A stretch of 13,276 bases of DNA from an uncultured bacterium (lineage in GTDB: Bacteria; SAR324; NAC60-12), in NCBI GenBank assembly GCA_964010765.1, contig CAXGMD010000083.1, forward strand, positions 1-13,276, read 5' to 3'. This document shows, one piece after another, positions 1-5,801 of the stretch. Under the pieces are notes generated by a model. The model had not been told where the DNA came from and did no database searches. It saw only the letters and a program-made list of their open reading frames with translations. Position 1 is the first letter of the stretch; every line of letters begins with the position of its first letter. The translations under genes were made by a program, and so were the position numbers.

Positions 1-67
1 CGAGGTCAAATCGCTGCAGAGCAGATGGTGCTTGAGATAGCGGGGAATTTTCGCAAAATTTTGAAAC

Positions 68-328
68 TTAGACCTTCCCTTCATATAAATCAATCAAAGG
101 AAAGCAGAGTTCAAAATCATTCCAGTCTAAGTTTCCATCTATGATTTGAAATTGCTTGAACTGATCTGGATTGAGGTAGCTCTGAATCTGAGGATGCTTT
201 GATCTTCTGAGAAAAGGCTCAAAATCAACAAGGCGCTCTGTTCCATCTGAGAATTGAAGTCTCAACTGATAGCCCTGATGATAATGAGCTTCTGTCAGGT
301 CAATCACTTGCTCAATCACTTCGCTCAT
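68..328 (-). CDS. DUF2442-family protein, putative type II antitoxin (DhiA-like)
   Basis: 86 aa with family-typical motifs YQLRLQFSDGTERLVDF and DGNLDWND...DLYE; ATGA overlap with the upstream DUF4160 gene at 325-328. Confidence 0.85.
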   Translation of the reverse strand: MSEVIEQVIDLTEAHYHQGYQLRLQFSDGTERLVDFEPFLRRSKHPQIQSYLNPDQFKQFQIIDGNLDWNDFELCFPLIDLYEGKV

Positions 329-630
329 TTGACTCTCTGGTTGATAATTTCTGTAGCGATTTCTCTGTTGTAGACGAAGTAGTCAATCCATCTTTGAACA
401 ATTTGTTCCGCATAAGCTTCAACAAACTCCTGAAGCAATTGCTGCTGAACCCGATCCAGGGTCTTTCGTCCTCTTACAGTTTTTGAACGAATACCCTTGA
501 TCTCCCCATTCTGAATCAATATTTCAAATTTACTCTCTCTACCCTGATAGCGCCCATGAACATGGACGGGTTCATGCTCGTTTGAGTAGAAGAAGATGCT
601 GATTCCCAGATACTCATAAAGTTTCGGCAT
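325..630 (-). CDS. DUF4160-family protein, putative type II toxin (DhiT-like)
   Basis: MPKLYEYLGISIFFYSNEHEPVHVH is the typical DUF4160 N-terminus (EHxPxHVH) with a C-terminal W (QRW). Start moved from 666 to the ATG at 630 (101 aa), because homology to the second copy stops exactly at this ATG (3490). Confidence 0.85.
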   Translation of the reverse strand: MPKLYEYLGISIFFYSNEHEPVHVHGRYQGRESKFEILIQNGEIKGIRSKTVRGRKTLDRVQQQLLQEFVEAYAEQIVQRWIDYFVYNREIATEIINQRVK

Positions 631-673
631 GACATATATCAGATGAAGTTCAAGCAGCAAACACAAATGAGTA

Positions 674-1243
674 TCACAACTTGATCATCTGTGCCAATTC
701 CAAAGCATCTTCGTTCTCCACTCCCAGATATCTTGATGTGTTCGCAACCGACTGATGACCAAGCAGTCGACGCACCGCTTCAATGTTCTGTGTCTTCTTG
801 AAAATCACACTCGCCTTTGTCTTGCGCACTGAATGTGTTGAGCGTCTTGCTCCATCAATCCCTGCCATCACACACCACTCCTTGACCAATCTGCGATGCT
901 GAACATCTGTGATTGCTTCGCTGCCCTTGCGTCCTGTGAAGAGCCAATCTGAATTCACTTTGCTCGAGAATTCTATCCAATTTGTCAGAGCACTCTTTGT
1001 CTTCTCATCTAAGACACAACTGACCATCCTGCCCGTCTTCTTCATTTTGACTTCAATGCGCTCTCGAATCTCACCTGTCGCTTCTTGAACATCGCAGACA
1101 CGCAAGCTTCTCAAGTCACTTGTGCGAAGCATTGTATCCACACCCATGCGAAAGAGAGCTAAGTCCCGAAGCTTGTCTGTTCTTCTGCTCAGCTCCTTCT
1201 CAATCTTGCGCACCTCAGTCTCAGTAAATGGTTTCGTAATCAT
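674..1243 (-). CDS. Small tyrosine recombinase/integrase (catalytic domain only, 189 aa)
   Basis: Full catalytic set visible: LRTSDL (R), KMKKT (K), THSVRKT (HxxR), LLGH, RYL (Y). Too short to include arm-binding or SAM-like N-terminal domains. RBS-like AGAGGG at 1248-1253. Confidence 0.92.
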   Translation of the reverse strand: MITKPFTETEVRKIEKELSRRTDKLRDLALFRMGVDTMLRTSDLRSLRVCDVQEATGEIRERIEVKMKKTGRMVSCVLDEKTKSALTNWIEFSSKVNSDWLFTGRKGSEAITDVQHRRLVKEWCVMAGIDGARRSTHSVRKTKASVIFKKTQNIEAVRRLLGHQSVANTSRYLGVENEDALELAQMIKL

Positions 1244-1284
1244 GCTGCCCTCTGAATGTTTGGTTTTGACGAAATTTTGATCTG

Positions 1285-1313
1285 ATCATACTTTTGAGCC
1301 CTCTCAATCGCAA
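1285..1313 (-). promoter_or_regulatory. Putative sigma70 promoter for the recombinase(-TA) transcript
   Basis: Minus strand reads TTGCGA (1313-1308), 17-nt spacer, TATGAT (1290-1285), ~40 nt upstream of the recombinase ATG. Confidence 0.55.
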
Positions 1314-1381
1314 CTAATTGTCCGTGATTCAATTTGAAGTCTGCTCAAACTATTGTTTTTTCATGATCTTTTTTCCAGCAG

Positions 1382-1422
1382 AAGCTGAATGTTTGTTTTG
1401 GTTCAAAGCAGACATTCGGCTT
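1382..1422 (+). repeat. 19-bp inverted repeat / hairpin between the divergent recombinase and hypothetical genes
   Basis: AAGCTGAATGTTTGTTTTG-GTT-CAAAGCAGACATTCGGCTT; 16 Watson-Crick pairs plus 3 T.G pairs on the + strand. Confidence 0.8.
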
Positions 1423-1510
1423 GGTTGTGCTGGGGAAGAATTCAGCGCTCCATAAATATTCAGAAGACGCACCCCATTCAAATCTGAACAACAATCAAAA
1501 AGGAGGAGCG

Positions 1511-1963
1511 ATGCTGTCGTTCAAACAGAAACTAGAGGAAAGTCGGGTAAGTCCATATTCGTTGGGCAATATTCTGAGAGTCGTCAATGAGAAGGAGTCC
1601 TTTCGTGGATTGGTTATTTCCAACAGAGGAAGTCAAGCAGTGCTGCTTGTGTTGACAGGAGAGAACACAGGAGATTTGGTTCACACAGAGAGTCTACAAG
1701 ACTATGACATCAGCATTGTGAGTGAGATGGAGGGCAGGATGCCAGAGACTCGCTATTTCTTCCAGAAGTCAGCAGCAGAGCAGAAAATCAAGTCGATTGA
1801 ATACCACAAGAGTGAATTGAAGGAGGATATATCACGTTCAGATATTCAATTATGGTGGAGTAGAGCCAGAAAATTACGAAAGACCGAGGAAACGAATAAG
1901 AGGTTGGACTTGGTGCTGGAAATTTTGCTGAGTGAGCAGATGGAGCGAAGGCTGGTGTATTGA
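1511..1963 (+). CDS. Hypothetical protein (150 aa), divergent from the recombinase
   Basis: Strong RBS AAGGAGGAG directly before the ATG at 1511, preferred over the TTG at 1421, which lies in the hairpin. Beta-rich N-half and charged helical C-half; no recognised family. Confidence 0.7.
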   Translation: MLSFKQKLEESRVSPYSLGNILRVVNEKESFRGLVISNRGSQAVLLVLTGENTGDLVHTESLQDYDISIVSEMEGRMPETRYFFQKSAAEQKIKSIEYHKSELKEDISRSDIQLWWSRARKLRKTEETNKRLDLVLEILLSEQMERRLVY

Positions 1964-2091
1964 GAATGTAGAAGTATTTTTGATCATTATTAAAAAGAGT
2001 ATATTTGCAAAATATCTAAATTTACAATGCTGCAATTTTGAAGAATAGGGAGAGCCATCATAGACAAGAGGTCATTTTTGACTTCTTTTTT

Positions 2092-2154
2092 ATTTTTACT
2101 CCTTTATTAAACATTGGTTGCCAACAAGATAGACTTAATCTCTGGAGTAAAAAT
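2092..2154. repeat. Imperfect long hairpin between convergent genes
   Basis: ATTTTTACTCC (2092-2102) / GGAGTAAAAAT (2144-2154) perfect 11-bp arms, with inner ATTAA/TTAAT and TTGG/CCAA pairings. Confidence 0.55.
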
Positions 2155-2168
2155 GCAACCACTAATAA

Positions 2169-3032
2169 TTACTGTTTATAATTATCATCATGTACATCTA
2201 TAATCTCTTGAGCGATTGTATTAAGGTTTGTAGTAAAGCCTGTGTTATAGTTGAATGAAGATAAATCAGTCTTATAAATACTGTTTAACCAAATCATTGT
2301 TCCAGCTTCGATAACAATCTGTCCCTGGTGGCCTTTTTCATCTGTGAATATTGAACTTGATTTTGGTCCAAACATCTCAATGTCATCCAATAATTCATTA
2401 TCAAGTTTCATTTGTGCTAAATTTTTAGCAGCCCATCCCGTTGGGATGGTAAAGATTTTTGTAGACGGGAATTTTACTCTCAATTCATCCACGATTTCTT
2501 TGTGTATGATCTCGTTTATATAATAATTATAAAATTCCTGAATAGAATTGAAGCCATTGTCTAATGCGAATGTTTTCCAGTCTGGTCGTGTACTGTTTGA
2601 ATCTCCATTTGGAAAGTCAAATGAACCAATAGCGATGAAAATTATAATATTTGGATTCTTTTGTAATGCATATCGTATCCATGCACTGTGACCTTCAGTT
2701 GGATTTTCAGAATCATAACCAGACGTCATACCAAAAACTTCAATGTTGCCTTGATCCAATGTGGATTTAATCAGTTGGTGCTCCTCACTAGTTGAATCGT
2801 TCCAAAAATTAATTGGTCTTCCAAGTTCTCCACCTCTTTTGACAACAATACTGCTGTGTTCATTAAGATTTGCTTCAGTTGCTAGATTGCTGAGATGATC
2901 TGCATATGGTTTAAAAAAACTATTCCCAATCAATAGCATATTATATCCTGTTGACTCGTCTTGTGATGACATATCTCCTTTACTACAAGACAGCATGAAT
3001 AACAGGATGCATAATTTAGAAATAGTTTTCAT
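2169..3032 (-). CDS. AT-rich lipoprotein, SGNH/GDSL-hydrolase-like
   Basis: Signal peptide with lipobox-like MLSC; block-I-like LLIGNSF (nucleophile Ser) and C-terminal DEKGH (DxxxH variant of the block V His). Confidence 0.7.
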   Translation of the reverse strand: MKTISKLCILLFMLSCSKGDMSSQDESTGYNMLLIGNSFFKPYADHLSNLATEANLNEHSSIVVKRGGELGRPINFWNDSTSEEHQLIKSTLDQGNIEVFGMTSGYDSENPTEGHSAWIRYALQKNPNIIIFIAIGSFDFPNGDSNSTRPDWKTFALDNGFNSIQEFYNYYINEIIHKEIVDELRVKFPSTKIFTIPTGWAAKNLAQMKLDNELLDDIEMFGPKSSSIFTDEKGHQGQIVIEAGTMIWLNSIYKTDLSSFNYNTGFTTNLNTIAQEIIDVHDDNYKQ

Positions 3033-3161
3033 ATTAGTTGTTTAATTACTTAGATCTTAATTTAACGAAAAAAGTTTGAATTATTATCAGTGCATAAAGT
3101 CAAATCGCTCTAGAGTAAATAGTGACTGAGCTAGCGGGGATTTTTGAACAGGTTCTGAAAC

Positions 3162-3410
3162 TCAGATCTTCCCCGTGTATAAATCCATCAGAGGAAAGCA
3201 GAGTTCAAAATCATTCCAGTCCAAGTTCCCATCTACAATCTGAAATTGCTTGAACCGATCTGGATTGAGATAGCTCTGAATCTGAGGATGTTTTGACCTT
3301 CTGAGGAAATGCTCAAAGTCAACTACCCGTTCAGAACCATCCGAGAACTGAAGCGTCAACTGGTAGCCCTGATGATACTGAGCTTCTGTCAGGTCAATCA
3401 CTTCGCTCAT
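3162..3410 (-). CDS. DUF2442-family protein, second copy (putative orphan antitoxin)
   Basis: 82 aa, 72/82 identical to the 68-328 product; open frame with intact start and stop. Confidence 0.85.
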   Translation of the reverse strand: MSEVIDLTEAQYHQGYQLTLQFSDGSERVVDFEHFLRRSKHPQIQSYLNPDRFKQFQIVDGNLDWNDFELCFPLMDLYTGKI

Positions 3411-3490
3411 TTGACCCTCTGGTTGATAATTTCTGTAGCGATGGAGTAGAAGAAGACACTGATTCTCAGATACTCGTAGAGTTTTGGCAT
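3407..3490 (-). pseudogene. DUF4160 toxin remnant with in-frame 222-bp internal deletion (27-aa mini-ORF)
   Basis: Translates MPKLYEYLRISVFFYS-IATEIINQRVK*: the first 16 and last 11 residues of the 325-630 protein fused. Sequence equivalent to 361-582 is absent. Confidence 0.9.
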
Positions 3491-3520
3491 AGTCCTGTTG
3501 GGTAAAGAGATTGTCAATGA

Positions 3521-3616
3521 TTATCGCAACTTAATCATCTGCGCCAACTCCAAAGCTGCCTCATTCTCCACTCCCAGATACCTTGATGTGTTGGCAATTG
3601 ACTGATGCCCCAGCAG
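3521..3616 (-). pseudogene. 3' fragment of tyrosine recombinase
   Basis: Translates LLGHQSIANTSRYLGVENEAALELAQMIKLR*, 28/30 identical to the C-terminus of 674-1243. Homology ends abruptly at 3616, and the R, K and HxxR motifs are missing. Confidence 0.9.
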
Positions 3617-3865
3617 GAGTTCTGTCTGTAGTAGATTAGTTGAGATAAAATGGCTGCTAGTGCTAACAGCAGCGACCACAGCACTGATTGATGTGGTCGA
3701 ACAATCGCATTATGACAATGCTATTTTGTGATTGATGTGGAGAGATCTTCAGAAAATCTGATAAGTTGTGTATTGGTGTATAAAAATTCCTCTTGTTATA
3801 GATTCTTTTCAGATAATTGAAGGTGATAGTAGAATGAGGTGGACAAACCATTTCACCGACTTGTG

Positions 3866-5089
3866 ATGAGAAAAATAAAAAGTCTGTTGACCATCCTTCT
3901 TGTGTTGCTGGTCTTCAATGACGCAACTCTGTGGTCTCAAGCAAAAACCGTCATCCTTTACATCAGTGATGATGATAGCAAGAGTGGCCAAGAGTCTGAT
4001 CCAACCAGTTGGAAAACAAGCAGAAATCTGGTGAGTGACCATGAGTATGTTGGAGAAGTCAGCAACGGATTGCCGAATGGCCAGGGAACCGAGACATTTC
4101 CAAGCGGAGTAGAATACGTAGGTTTTTTCAAGGACGGCAAGAGGAACGGCCAGGGGACCATGACTTTAACCGAGGGACGAGTGTTTAGTGGCTTCTGGCG
4201 CGATGGAAAGTTCATCGGTAAAGAACCATTGGAGCAAAAGCCACCAAAAATCACATCAGCAACGCTCTACATTGGTGAGGAAAAGACCAAGAGTGGGCAG
4301 GAGTCCAATCCAGCCAGCTGGAAAACAAGTAGAAACTCAGAAAGCGACCATGAGTATGTTGGAGAAATTCGTAACGGATTGCCGAACGGAGTGGGAAGTT
4401 ATACTGATCCAGACGGCTTGAAATACGAGGGTTCTTTCAAGGATGGTAGATTCAGCGGCCAAGGAATCTCGACCTTGCCAGACGGCTTGAAGTACGAAGG
4501 TTCTTTCAAGGATGGCAAAGAGCATGGAGAGGGAACTTTGACTTTGCCAAGTGGATCAAAATACGTAGGTTCCTTCAAGAATGGATTACCTGATGGAGAA
4601 GGGAGTTATGCTGATCCAGACGGCTTGAAGTACGAGGGTTCTTTCAAGAATGGTAAATTCAATGGTCAGGGCACAAAGACATTCCCAAACGGTCAGGTAT
4701 ACACGGGTGCATTCAAGAGCGGTGAGATGCATGGTCAGGGTACATTGACCCATCCATCAGGTCAGAAATACACTGGAGAATTTCAGGACGATTGGATGCA
4801 TGGTCAGGGTACATTAACTCGTCCAGATGGCTTGAAATACGTGGGTGACTTCAAAAAAGGTAAACCGGACGGAAAAGGGACGTTCACTTTGCCAAGTGGC
4901 ATAAAGTACGTTGGGGATGTCAAGAATGGTAAAGAACACGGTCAAGGGACTCTGACTCATCCATCGGGTCAGAAATATGTTGGGGAATACAAGTACGGCA
5001 AGATAGATGGTCGGGGAACAATGACCTATCCAGACGGACGAGTAGAAAGAGGACTCTGGAAAGAAAACAAGTTTTTGGGCAATCAGTGA
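3866..5089 (+). CDS. Secreted MORN-repeat protein with two tandem modules
   Basis: Signal peptide MRKIKSLLTILLVLLVFNDATLWSQA (ATG 3866 preferred; GTG 3839 possible). Twelve 23-aa repeats YxGxFKxGxxxGxGTxTxPxG plus two capping half-repeats. Confidence 0.88.
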   Translation: MRKIKSLLTILLVLLVFNDATLWSQAKTVILYISDDDSKSGQESDPTSWKTSRNLVSDHEYVGEVSNGLPNGQGTETFPSGVEYVGFFKDGKRNGQGTMTLTEGRVFSGFWRDGKFIGKEPLEQKPPKITSATLYIGEEKTKSGQESNPASWKTSRNSESDHEYVGEIRNGLPNGVGSYTDPDGLKYEGSFKDGRFSGQGISTLPDGLKYEGSFKDGKEHGEGTLTLPSGSKYVGSFKNGLPDGEGSYADPDGLKYEGSFKNGKFNGQGTKTFPNGQVYTGAFKSGEMHGQGTLTHPSGQKYTGEFQDDWMHGQGTLTRPDGLKYVGDFKKGKPDGKGTFTLPSGIKYVGDVKNGKEHGQGTLTHPSGQKYVGEYKYGKIDGRGTMTYPDGRVERGLWKENKFLGNQ

Positions 5090-5241
5090 GGACAGATTCT
5101 GTAGATTAGAAGATCTCTTTCATTTTTTAGGGGGTGTTAAGAATCTCTTTTTCAAACTCTCTGCAAACAGTCTACTTGTTACTCCCACCGTGGACATCAG
5201 TCCTTCTTCTTTTACTGAGATGGATTCGATCCTTGAACAAG

Positions 5242-5281
5242 TACTTTTTTGGAGACTTAGAAGTACGGATCCAAAAAAGTA
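5242..5281. terminator. 12-bp perfect inverted repeat between convergent genes (possible terminator or protein-binding site)
   Basis: TACTTTTTTGGA (5242-5253) / TCCAAAAAAGTA (5270-5281) with a 16-nt spacer. Confidence 0.4.
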
Positions 5282-5375
5282 GCAGGGCAATTGGCTAAGA
5301 AATTACTTGCCTAGAGTGATCACAGTGGCCCAATTTCCGAAGAAATATTTGGGAATTTCTGGGACCTCCAAACCG

Positions 5376-5801
5376 CTACTCCACAAACCGCTCCAAGCAA
5401 TCCTGGTGGATGAATTGTCCAAAAGCAATAGCAATCTCTGAGTCTCTTTTGCGATCCCTCCATTTCTGATAGTAGTTGGGAGCTGCATCCACTACGGAGT
5501 TACCCATTGATTTTGTACGAGATTCCCAAATCGCTTTCTCTCCTCTCTTAGCTACCTTCATCGCCTTCAAGGAAGTTCTGAACTCACCCAACGAACCACC
5601 TGCTTGGTGCGTCTGCATCACCATCCGTGCAAAGCCTCCCAGCCGATTACATGTGTCCGATTTTAAGTCTGGCGAATCTTGATTGCTGAAGGCAGCAGCA
5701 GAGCTCAGTAAAAGAATACTCGCTGTGATCCCAAAATATGTAACAAATTTGTTATTTATAAGACTATTTTGATACTGTAATCGGATGTTTTTTGTGAGCA
5801 T
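5376..5801 (-). CDS. Hypothetical exported protein
   Basis: 141 aa; hydrophobic signal-like stretch ending AAAFS; mature region helical with one Cys near each end (DTC...DCL), suggesting a disulfide. Start uncertain. Confidence 0.65.
   Translation of the reverse strand: MLTKNIRLQYQNSLINNKFVTYFGITASILLLSSAAAFSNQDSPDLKSDTCNRLGGFARMVMQTHQAGGSLGEFRTSLKAMKVAKRGEKAIWESRTKSMGNSVVDAAPNYYQKWRDRKRDSEIAIAFGQFIHQDCLERFVE

Follow-up and report, generated by a model that had tools for sequence, protein, structure and literature searches.

The window analyzed here corresponds to the full length (13,276 bp) of contig C83 from a metagenome-assembled genome (MAG; 3.86 Mb in 266 contigs) from an uncultured bacterium of the SAR324 lineage. 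Its left 3.6 kb contain a short gene cluster, part of which recurs in the same orientation 3094 bp further on (Table 1). The cluster comprises a tyrosine recombinase, a predicted toxin-antitoxin (TA) pair with DUF4160 and DUF2442 domains, a divergent gene for a lineage-specific protein (c150), and a noncoding element, SL, which ends in a hairpin, HP2. A preliminary description of the same sequence had regarded recombinase and TA pair as a free-standing mobile element present in two copies. We found that a small gene cassette accounts for the repeat, being present once intact and once in decayed form, and that it is nested in a larger, integrase-bearing island.

Table 1. Features in the left part of the window, with strand and supporting details
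Feature	Position	Strand	Details
SL noncoding element, copy 1	1..67	-	Downstream of antitoxin; contig starts inside the HP2 left arm (bases 1-6)
TA cassette (discrete 617-bp indel)	67..683	-	Joint of 66 to 684 in a contig of run X14; same form in L040
DUF2442 antitoxin (DhiA-like), copy 1, 86 aa	68..328	-	Pfam 31.2 bits, cut-off 23.9; NCBIfam DhiA 25.8 bits, cut-off 200
DUF4160 toxin (DhiT-like), copy 1, 101 aa from ATG at 630	325..630 (ORF 325-666)	-	Pfam 50.4 bits, cut-off 23
Tyrosine recombinase, 189 aa, catalytic domain only	674..1243	-	PF00589 78.2 bits, cut-off 27.1
c150, 150-aa lineage-specific protein from M31	1511..1963 (longest ORF 1421-1963)	+	Divergent from recombinase
Foreign tRNA 3' end (11 nt, 2047-2057: acceptor strand, discriminator, CCA) and terminator-like flank	2047..2155	+	
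c287, predicted lipoprotein, cargo	2169..3032	-	No family match
SL element, copy 2	3099..3161	-	Stops at the foot of the missing hairpin; breakpoint between TTGACTT and TATGCAC
DUF2442 antitoxin, copy 2, 82 aa, intact, orphan	3162..3410	-	Pfam 28.6 bits; omega 0.125 against copy 1
DUF4160 remnant, 27-aa ORF after 74-codon in-frame deletion	3407..3490	-	
Recombinase tail remnant, codons 160-189 plus one	3521..3616	-	Orthologous to 'tail1' beside the MORN gene in relatives
Junction region and MORN-repeat gene	3617..5089	+	Common to all hotspot alleles

The two copies of the repeat

The repeat consists of four pairs of matching stretches: 5-304 and 3099-3398 (84% identity, spacing 3094), 312-360 and 3394-3442 (98%), 579-630 and 3439-3490 (85%), and 666-766 and 3516-3616 (85%). 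The similarity between the two copies is far above chance. The 63-bp 'tail' at their left end (5-67 and 3099-3161) is the left part of the conserved SL element, whose hairpin HP2 is interrupted by the end of the contig in copy 1 and absent from copy 2. The earlier statement that the entire block occurs twice was borne out for the repeats and their spacing, but copy 2 is incomplete: its recombinase is reduced to 30 codons, and its DUF4160 gene has a 222-bp in-frame deletion. The open reading frame (ORF) left by this deletion keeps the start region of the gene and the ATGA overlap with the antitoxin start. No further copy of the module was found elsewhere in the MAG when all contigs were searched at the DNA level and with tblastn.

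The antitoxin genes of the two copies differ at 38 of 249 nucleotides and 13 of 82 residues, and by a 12-nt indel; the preliminary description had counted about 33 nucleotides and 10 residues. Its figures for the recombinase tails were correct (14 of 93 nucleotides, two residue changes and a stop codon lost in one copy). Because synonymous divergence between the antitoxins is high (dS 0.68; omega, the dN/dS ratio, 0.125), the copies are old, diverged relatives and not the product of a recent duplication, as had already been proposed. A recent segmental duplication inside this genome, followed by decay, would explain the common orientation and the 3094-bp spacing; with such a dS value, with spacers that cannot be aligned between the copies, and with orthologs of the copy 2 junction present in other species of the genus, which lack copy 1, we consider it exceedingly improbable.

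The comparison with relatives bears out the age of copy 2. Matches were found in two of the eight other genomes of the genus (species G050 and G055). These two, together with loci L055, L056, and L058-L064, share a flank (ABC transporter, PRTase, p141), the MORN gene and an abutting recombinase tail. What lies behind the tail varies: TA type 1 in L055 and L056, TA type 2 in G050 and in copy 2 of the window, and HigBA and other DNA in G055 and L058-L064. Copy 2 is thus an old remnant, shared through the junction common to these relatives, and a further 61 bp of it were lost in the lineage of the window.

A nested module within an integrase-bearing island

The recombinase aligns with residues 109-287 of XerD, i.e., its catalytic half. 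R40, K69, H137, R140, and Y172 are invariant in 25 homologues and H163 in 10, and omega values of 0.06-0.15 indicate purifying selection. The presence of the R-K-H-R-H/W-Y residues places the protein in the tyrosine recombinase superfamily (PF00589). It does not qualify as a Xer protein (XerC/XerD/XerA), as it has no N-terminal core-binding domain and scored 52-80 bits with models whose cut-offs are 220-335. Nor does it qualify as an integron integrase (IntI, TIGR02249; 22.9 bits over residues 103-182 only, cut-off 265) or as a FimB/FimE invertase (NF007370 and NF007371; 24 and 21 bits, cut-offs 221 and 222).

The c150 gene was found at all 13 recombinase 5' ends for which at least 0.7 kb of upstream sequence was available (one copy was partial and two were frameshifted). 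Only 33 homologues of the protein were detected, with identities of 66-100% over 37-100% of the query, and it is under purifying selection (omega 0.21-0.26). It matched no Pfam or NCBIfam family and gave no usable match in the ESM Atlas. We draw no function from its AlphaFold2 model, because confidence was low (pLDDT 57.6) and only generic small beta-barrels were matched (Z at most 5.5). The preliminary description had counted this gene among foreign cargo between the copies; it is instead the constant divergent partner of the recombinase, while the remainder of that interval (c287 and the foreign tRNA end) is indeed cargo.

The third recurrent component is SL, an element of about 115 bp downstream of the recombinase. 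The arms of its terminal hairpin HP2 (ACCTCGTGA and TCACGAGGT, 9 bp each) are 32-34 nt apart; they are kept in 23 copies, with a different loop in three. Homology between loci stops at a single base after HP2, where at least eight different sequences follow, and on the other side at the c150 stop codon in 12 of the 12 copies compared. Searches of Rfam with four island loci and window positions 1-5400 gave no match to SL/HP2 (only a tRNA and chance-level matches), and the element was found nowhere else in the MAG. By these comparisons, the constant module is made up of the recombinase, the divergent c150 and the SL element ending in HP2. Besides the copies downstream of recombinases, an extra HP2 inverted repeat lies on the opposite strand inside a primase-helicase ORF (L046:3397-3447, L047:1072-1122, L151:7129-7179), where it could be an origin-like or regulatory site.

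The TA pair had been described as a constant part of the module. Among the 13 loci in which 0.7 kb or more is available downstream of a full-length recombinase, however, only three have the pair there, as does the window. The pair is itself an indel: in a contig of run X14 and in locus L040, bases 67-683 are replaced by 11 nt and the last residues of the recombinase are altered. The pair is thus an optional 617-bp insert.

Inspection of near-identical sequences revealed what lies to the left of the window. L041 and L042, two contigs from metagenomes, share 99-100% identity with it and extend beyond its left end. Past the antitoxin they contain, in this order, HP2, a 594-aa integrase (PF00589 and DUF6538) on the opposite strand, and a tRNA-Leu gene. 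No integrase had been seen in the window because the contig end cut it off; the break appears to have hidden about 2 kb. The large integrase itself was not found in the MAG. One of the MAG contigs, C50, ends on the last base of a tRNA-Leu(CAG) and aligns with the far flank of L055 at 93% identity. Among the 13 loci with sufficient downstream sequence, 11 contain a homologue of this integrase of about 600 aa downstream of the recombinase and on the opposite strand, followed by tRNA-Leu or comM. It was not seen in L040 and L047 within the 3.3 and 0.74 kb available. The integrase gene is directly beside the tRNA 3' end in L042, L044, and L055, while the same architecture is located in comM in L046 and L048. 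In the MAG, comM is uninterrupted on contig C80 and represents the empty site; by comparison with it, the island measures 9.2 kb and has an 18-bp direct repeat. These arrangements show that the module is nested in a larger island, which the large integrase may insert as a whole at the tRNA or comM.

A free-standing, self-moving element made of the recombinase and the DUF4160/DUF2442 pair, capturing cargo independently of any phage, integrative and conjugative element or island, had been the proposal of the preliminary description. The existence of a recombinase-TA-SL block in two diverged versions (TA1 and TA2) at one hotspot, together with varied cargo, would agree with it. We nevertheless judge it very unlikely: the TA pair is missing after the recombinase in 10 of the 13 loci and is a separate 617-bp indel; wherever the flanks allow, the module is found within integrase-bearing islands at tRNA-Leu or comM; and it was found nowhere else in this genome. 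The larger island continues to the left of the window and encloses the module, a situation that the preliminary description had itself named as one that would speak against its proposal.

Two further observations concern the insertion sites. Contig C80 begins 41 bp before the 18-bp attachment core in the uninterrupted comM (C80:1-59), which may reflect strain heterogeneity at this second island site. Beyond its tRNA-Leu(GAG), L042 has a gene for a further tyrosine recombinase of 243 aa (L042:11896-12627); L055 has a tRNA-Leu(CAG) and different genes there, and the two tRNA-Leu genes differ throughout.

Proposed gain and loss of units at the hairpin element

Evidence that the nested unit behaves as a block was provided by two related comM islands. 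The island of G051 (contig C28) consists of a primase-helicase, one SL/HP2, HigAB and the integrase. L046 is the same island (86-91% identical) with 2437 additional bp, comprising DUF3015, c150 and the recombinase, placed between two copies of SL/HP2 that form direct repeats of about 112-119 bp. The single SL/HP2 of G051 has the left flank of L046 on one side and the right flank on the other. Because these sister islands differ only by the repeat-flanked 2.4-kb unit, the unit would be gained or lost as a cassette. Locus L040 is identical to the window up to c150 and contains, behind the first HP2, a second unit of two cargo genes, c150 and the recombinase, i.e., two units in tandem. Both cases fit a block inserted or excised at SL/HP2, as judged from the sequences. 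Two earlier expectations were thereby supported: that the recombinase module sits at a hotspot beside unrelated neighbors (it recurs with differing flanks on both sides, and in tandem in L040) and that the unit shows discrete presence or absence (the one clean 2.4-kb indel between G051 and L046).

The explanation that we favor is as follows. In a marine bacterium, a tRNA-Leu gene would be a hotspot for genomic islands, and the left 3.6 kb of the window would lie within this hotspot. Starting from the tRNA, the order would be tRNA-Leu, the DUF6538-type integrase (about 600 aa, just past window base 1), SL/HP2, and a first unit with a DhiTA-like TA pair, the small recombinase, the divergent c150 and cargo (the foreign tRNA end and the lipoprotein gene). 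Next would come the stump of an older sister unit, of which the left half of SL, the orphan antitoxin, the dead toxin and 30 recombinase codons remain, and beyond it the MORN gene and then the chromosome. The units would all belong to one family of small cassettes, each with cargo, c150, the recombinase, in some cases a TA pair, and SL/HP2. Such cassettes would come and go as blocks at the hairpin element, accumulate in tandem, and later decay and recombine with one another. We consider this explanation, taken as a whole, reasonably probable, with ample room for doubt.

A more specific version would make SL/HP2 a folded or paired recombination site and the small recombinase, with c150, its dedicated enzyme. 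This would amount to an integron-like capture in which each cassette brings its own recombinase, docks at a hairpin in tRNA-Leu or comM islands, stacks, and carries pieces of donor chromosomes and an optional TA pair. The small recombinase, perhaps together with c150, may indeed perform cassette recombination at SL/HP2; the version in its entirety is a tentative proposal, possible and on balance doubtful.

Several observations weigh against cassette recombination at SL/HP2. The cassette indel was seen in one pair of islands (L046 and G051) and could equally be a homologous deletion between the ~93%-identical 115-bp repeats. In L041 and L042, the recombinase gene is dispensable, because a deletion of 104 bp (approximately window 1206-1309) removes its upstream region and its first 13 codons. 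In L040, differences from the window are spread over the entire first recombinase gene, and the sequences switch close to the start of c150; this mosaic points to homologous exchange, not to a fixed crossover site. Copy 2 in the window has no HP2, so the window unit is not flanked by two complete sites. A compensatory change was found in only one of the nine pairs of the HP2 stem, and HP2 sits between convergent genes; it could be a mere terminator-like element. The assembled contigs of four marine runs contained neither a circle junction nor a joint left by excision of the 3094-bp unit, an absence that by itself proves nothing, and no distal direct repeat of tRNA-Leu was found in L042, L055, L044 or the window (E up to 1). 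As to L040, we also considered that it might be the window sequence with an insertion in the recombinase tail; this was rejected, as the mismatches span the whole gene.

Much of this would also be accounted for if there were no separate cassette. The recombinase and c150 would then be fixed internal genes of the large-integrase island; islands would integrate successively at tRNA-Leu, the older ones being whittled by deletion; SL/HP2 would be a terminator; and indels and mosaics would result from homologous recombination between related islands. The downstream integrase in 11 of the 13 loci, the tRNA-Leu adjoining it, a mosaic breakpoint in L040 that is not at a fixed site, and a hairpin that lies between convergent genes with a stem conserved rather than covarying all agree with this account, and a preprint on marine tRNA islands (10.1101/2020.12.28.424599) describes elements that integrate in tandem and leave decayed remnants. 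Against it, the difference between G051 and L046 is exactly DUF3015, c150 and recombinase between two SL/HP2 copies, the two c150-recombinase units stacked in L040 are not separated by any fragment of an integrase or tRNA, and many different flanks begin at one base after HP2; no partial tRNA-Leu was found between units either. We regard this account as unlikely, though as a serious competitor of the nested cassette.

The truncated recombinases at the hotspot deserve separate consideration. On the other side of the MORN gene, relatives contain a second, more decayed recombinase tail and a 156-aa ORF (p156), both absent from the window. The two tails (tail1 beside MORN, tail2 beside p156) begin at codons 140 and 143, i.e., within about 9 bp of each other, and no N-terminal recombinase remnant was found upstream of either. 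In SSV1-type archaeal integrases, attP lies inside int, and the recombinase fragments at element borders seen here are likewise C-terminal. An attachment site in the recombinase gene near codon 140, with integration splitting the gene and leaving C-terminal tails, would thus explain the close starts of two independent tails, the missing N-terminal remnants and the repeated swapping of the downstream module behind a constant tail. We find this design improbable to a high degree. No fragment limited to codons 1-139 was present among 28 metagenome loci, though four of the six search patterns lie in that part; other truncations occur elsewhere (codon 122 in L060, a relative of L040, and codon 160 in the window); the demonstrable G051/L046 indel is bounded by the SL/HP2 hairpin element, not by codon 140; and the chance of two events within 9 bp of 570 is roughly 3%. 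The candidate that p156 and tail2 represent a decayed full-length recombinase was rejected, as no similarity was found upstream of codon 137.

Other features of the hotspot alleles were noted. A stretch of about 190 bp (window 5090-5280) replaces the region with the 156-aa ORF and the second tail (L055:5474-6525) between MORN and p141. The MORN gene (3839-5089) has internal repeats of 69-bp period and of 309 bp (families D1 and D3) and is 89-100% conserved in all alleles. In L056, a gene resembling an Sf6-type small terminase subunit lies beyond an integrase fragment (L056:10353-10829), which hints at a phage-satellite-like neighbor at the hotspot.

The cargo of the first unit is covered more deeply than its surroundings in marine metagenomes. 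In four marine runs, the summed contig depth over the foreign tRNA end and its flank was 258-293, against about 12 for the neighboring sequence (about 20-fold), and metagenome contigs covering position 2047 continue upstream into the T-arm of a tRNA. This tRNA is not among the 32 found in the MAG, and ARAGORN found no tRNA in the window. The depth over c287 was 50-167 in the marine runs (5- to 15-fold that of the neighbors). The tRNA end and its flank are probably captured DNA of a donor chromosome; the stretch looks like a piece of the chromosome of a more abundant organism, cut at the tRNA end and carried in.

The TA pair of the first unit belongs to a type validated as DhiTA in Dickeya dadantii (PMC8198452). 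As in Dickeya, a DUF4160 and a DUF2442 domain are encoded by adjacent overlapping genes, toxin first (the overlap in copy 1 is the 4-bp ATGA). Unlike the Dickeya proteins, the predicted toxin and antitoxin of the window match the NCBIfam equivalog models weakly and fall short of their cut-offs (DhiT 26.8 bits for a cut-off of 100; DhiA 25.8 for 200). The pair may stabilize the unit; in the Dickeya paper, the legend of the plasmid-stability figure credits ccdAB2 with improved maintenance (PMC8198452). In copy 2, an intact antitoxin under purifying selection (omega 0.125) stands beside a cleanly disabled toxin. It would be an orphan kept by selection and could possibly neutralize the sister toxin. 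An orphan antitoxin next to a precisely disabled toxin provides a natural example of a possible anti-addiction remnant.

Wider relatives and comparison with known systems

Catalytic-domain-only relatives at about 40% identity are numerous (at least 599 matching stretches, the ORFs being mostly of 205-235 aa). At 80 such loci the neighbors were heterogeneous (143 of the 281 neighbor ORFs were compared with Pfam). A hidden Markov model of the large integrase, built here, matched none of the 80; seven had another tyrosine recombinase, and two a tRNA, at a distance of up to 10 kb. Because these wider loci have mixed neighbors and no match to the large integrase, the link to islands holds only for the present lineage. 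Within the phylum, some of the more distant relatives are again found in islands with a second integrase or beside TA pairs (L036, L038, L009). In L036 (G084:C24, 1506-14842), a 45%-identical small recombinase lies between a helicase-integrase module and defense-like cargo, namely KwaB of Kiwa and a NACHT ATPase. The viral contigs of IMG/VR yielded close relatives of neither the small recombinase nor the large integrase, and a literature search of incomplete coverage yielded no description of this module.

Marine tRNA islands (tycheposons and similar elements) stack, decay and leave fragments of older elements (10.1101/2020.12.28.424599). In architecture, the aspect compared, the present islands resemble them: an integrase beside the tRNA faces inward, the cargo is variable, some relatives have a primase-helicase module (L046, L047, G051), newer elements seem to push older ones inward, and adjacent host DNA appears to be carried along (the foreign tRNA end and c287). 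They differ in that no flanking partial tRNA-Leu repeat was found here. The second, catalytic-domain-only recombinase with c150 and SL/HP2 is also a difference, as it does not occur in the passages of that preprint consulted.

FimB/FimE-type invertases are small tyrosine recombinases without an N-terminal DNA-binding domain, and the present enzyme is similar in size (~190-200 aa) and in having the catalytic domain only. It is set apart by the low scores with the invertase models given above, and the repeats of the module are direct, not inverted. Integron cassettes and the pdif modules of Acinetobacter (XerC/XerD) are small blocks of cargo, often TA pairs, bounded by short sites with inverted arms, and attC sites have conserved arms and a replaceable loop. 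Similarly, the units described here stack in tandem beside a recombinase, and the arms of HP2 are conserved while its loop is replaceable. In contrast, each unit has its own recombinase, which fails the IntI and Xer models, and the arms of HP2 are 32-34 bp apart rather than 6-8. By analogy, the nested unit may work like an integron cassette or a pdif module, and it would be a member of neither group.

If only accretion of whole islands and homologous recombination were at work, the locus would be an ordinary decaying island. If the nested-cassette reading is true, island hotspots of abundant marine bacteria would be remodeled at two levels, the large integrase placing the island at a tRNA gene or comM and the nested, tiny recombinase unit swapping 1-3 kb of cargo. 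It would offer a concrete pair of site and enzyme, i.e., an element of about 115 bp with 9-bp inverted arms and a 189-aa recombinase, and would bear on how 'island genes' that belong to no element accumulate.

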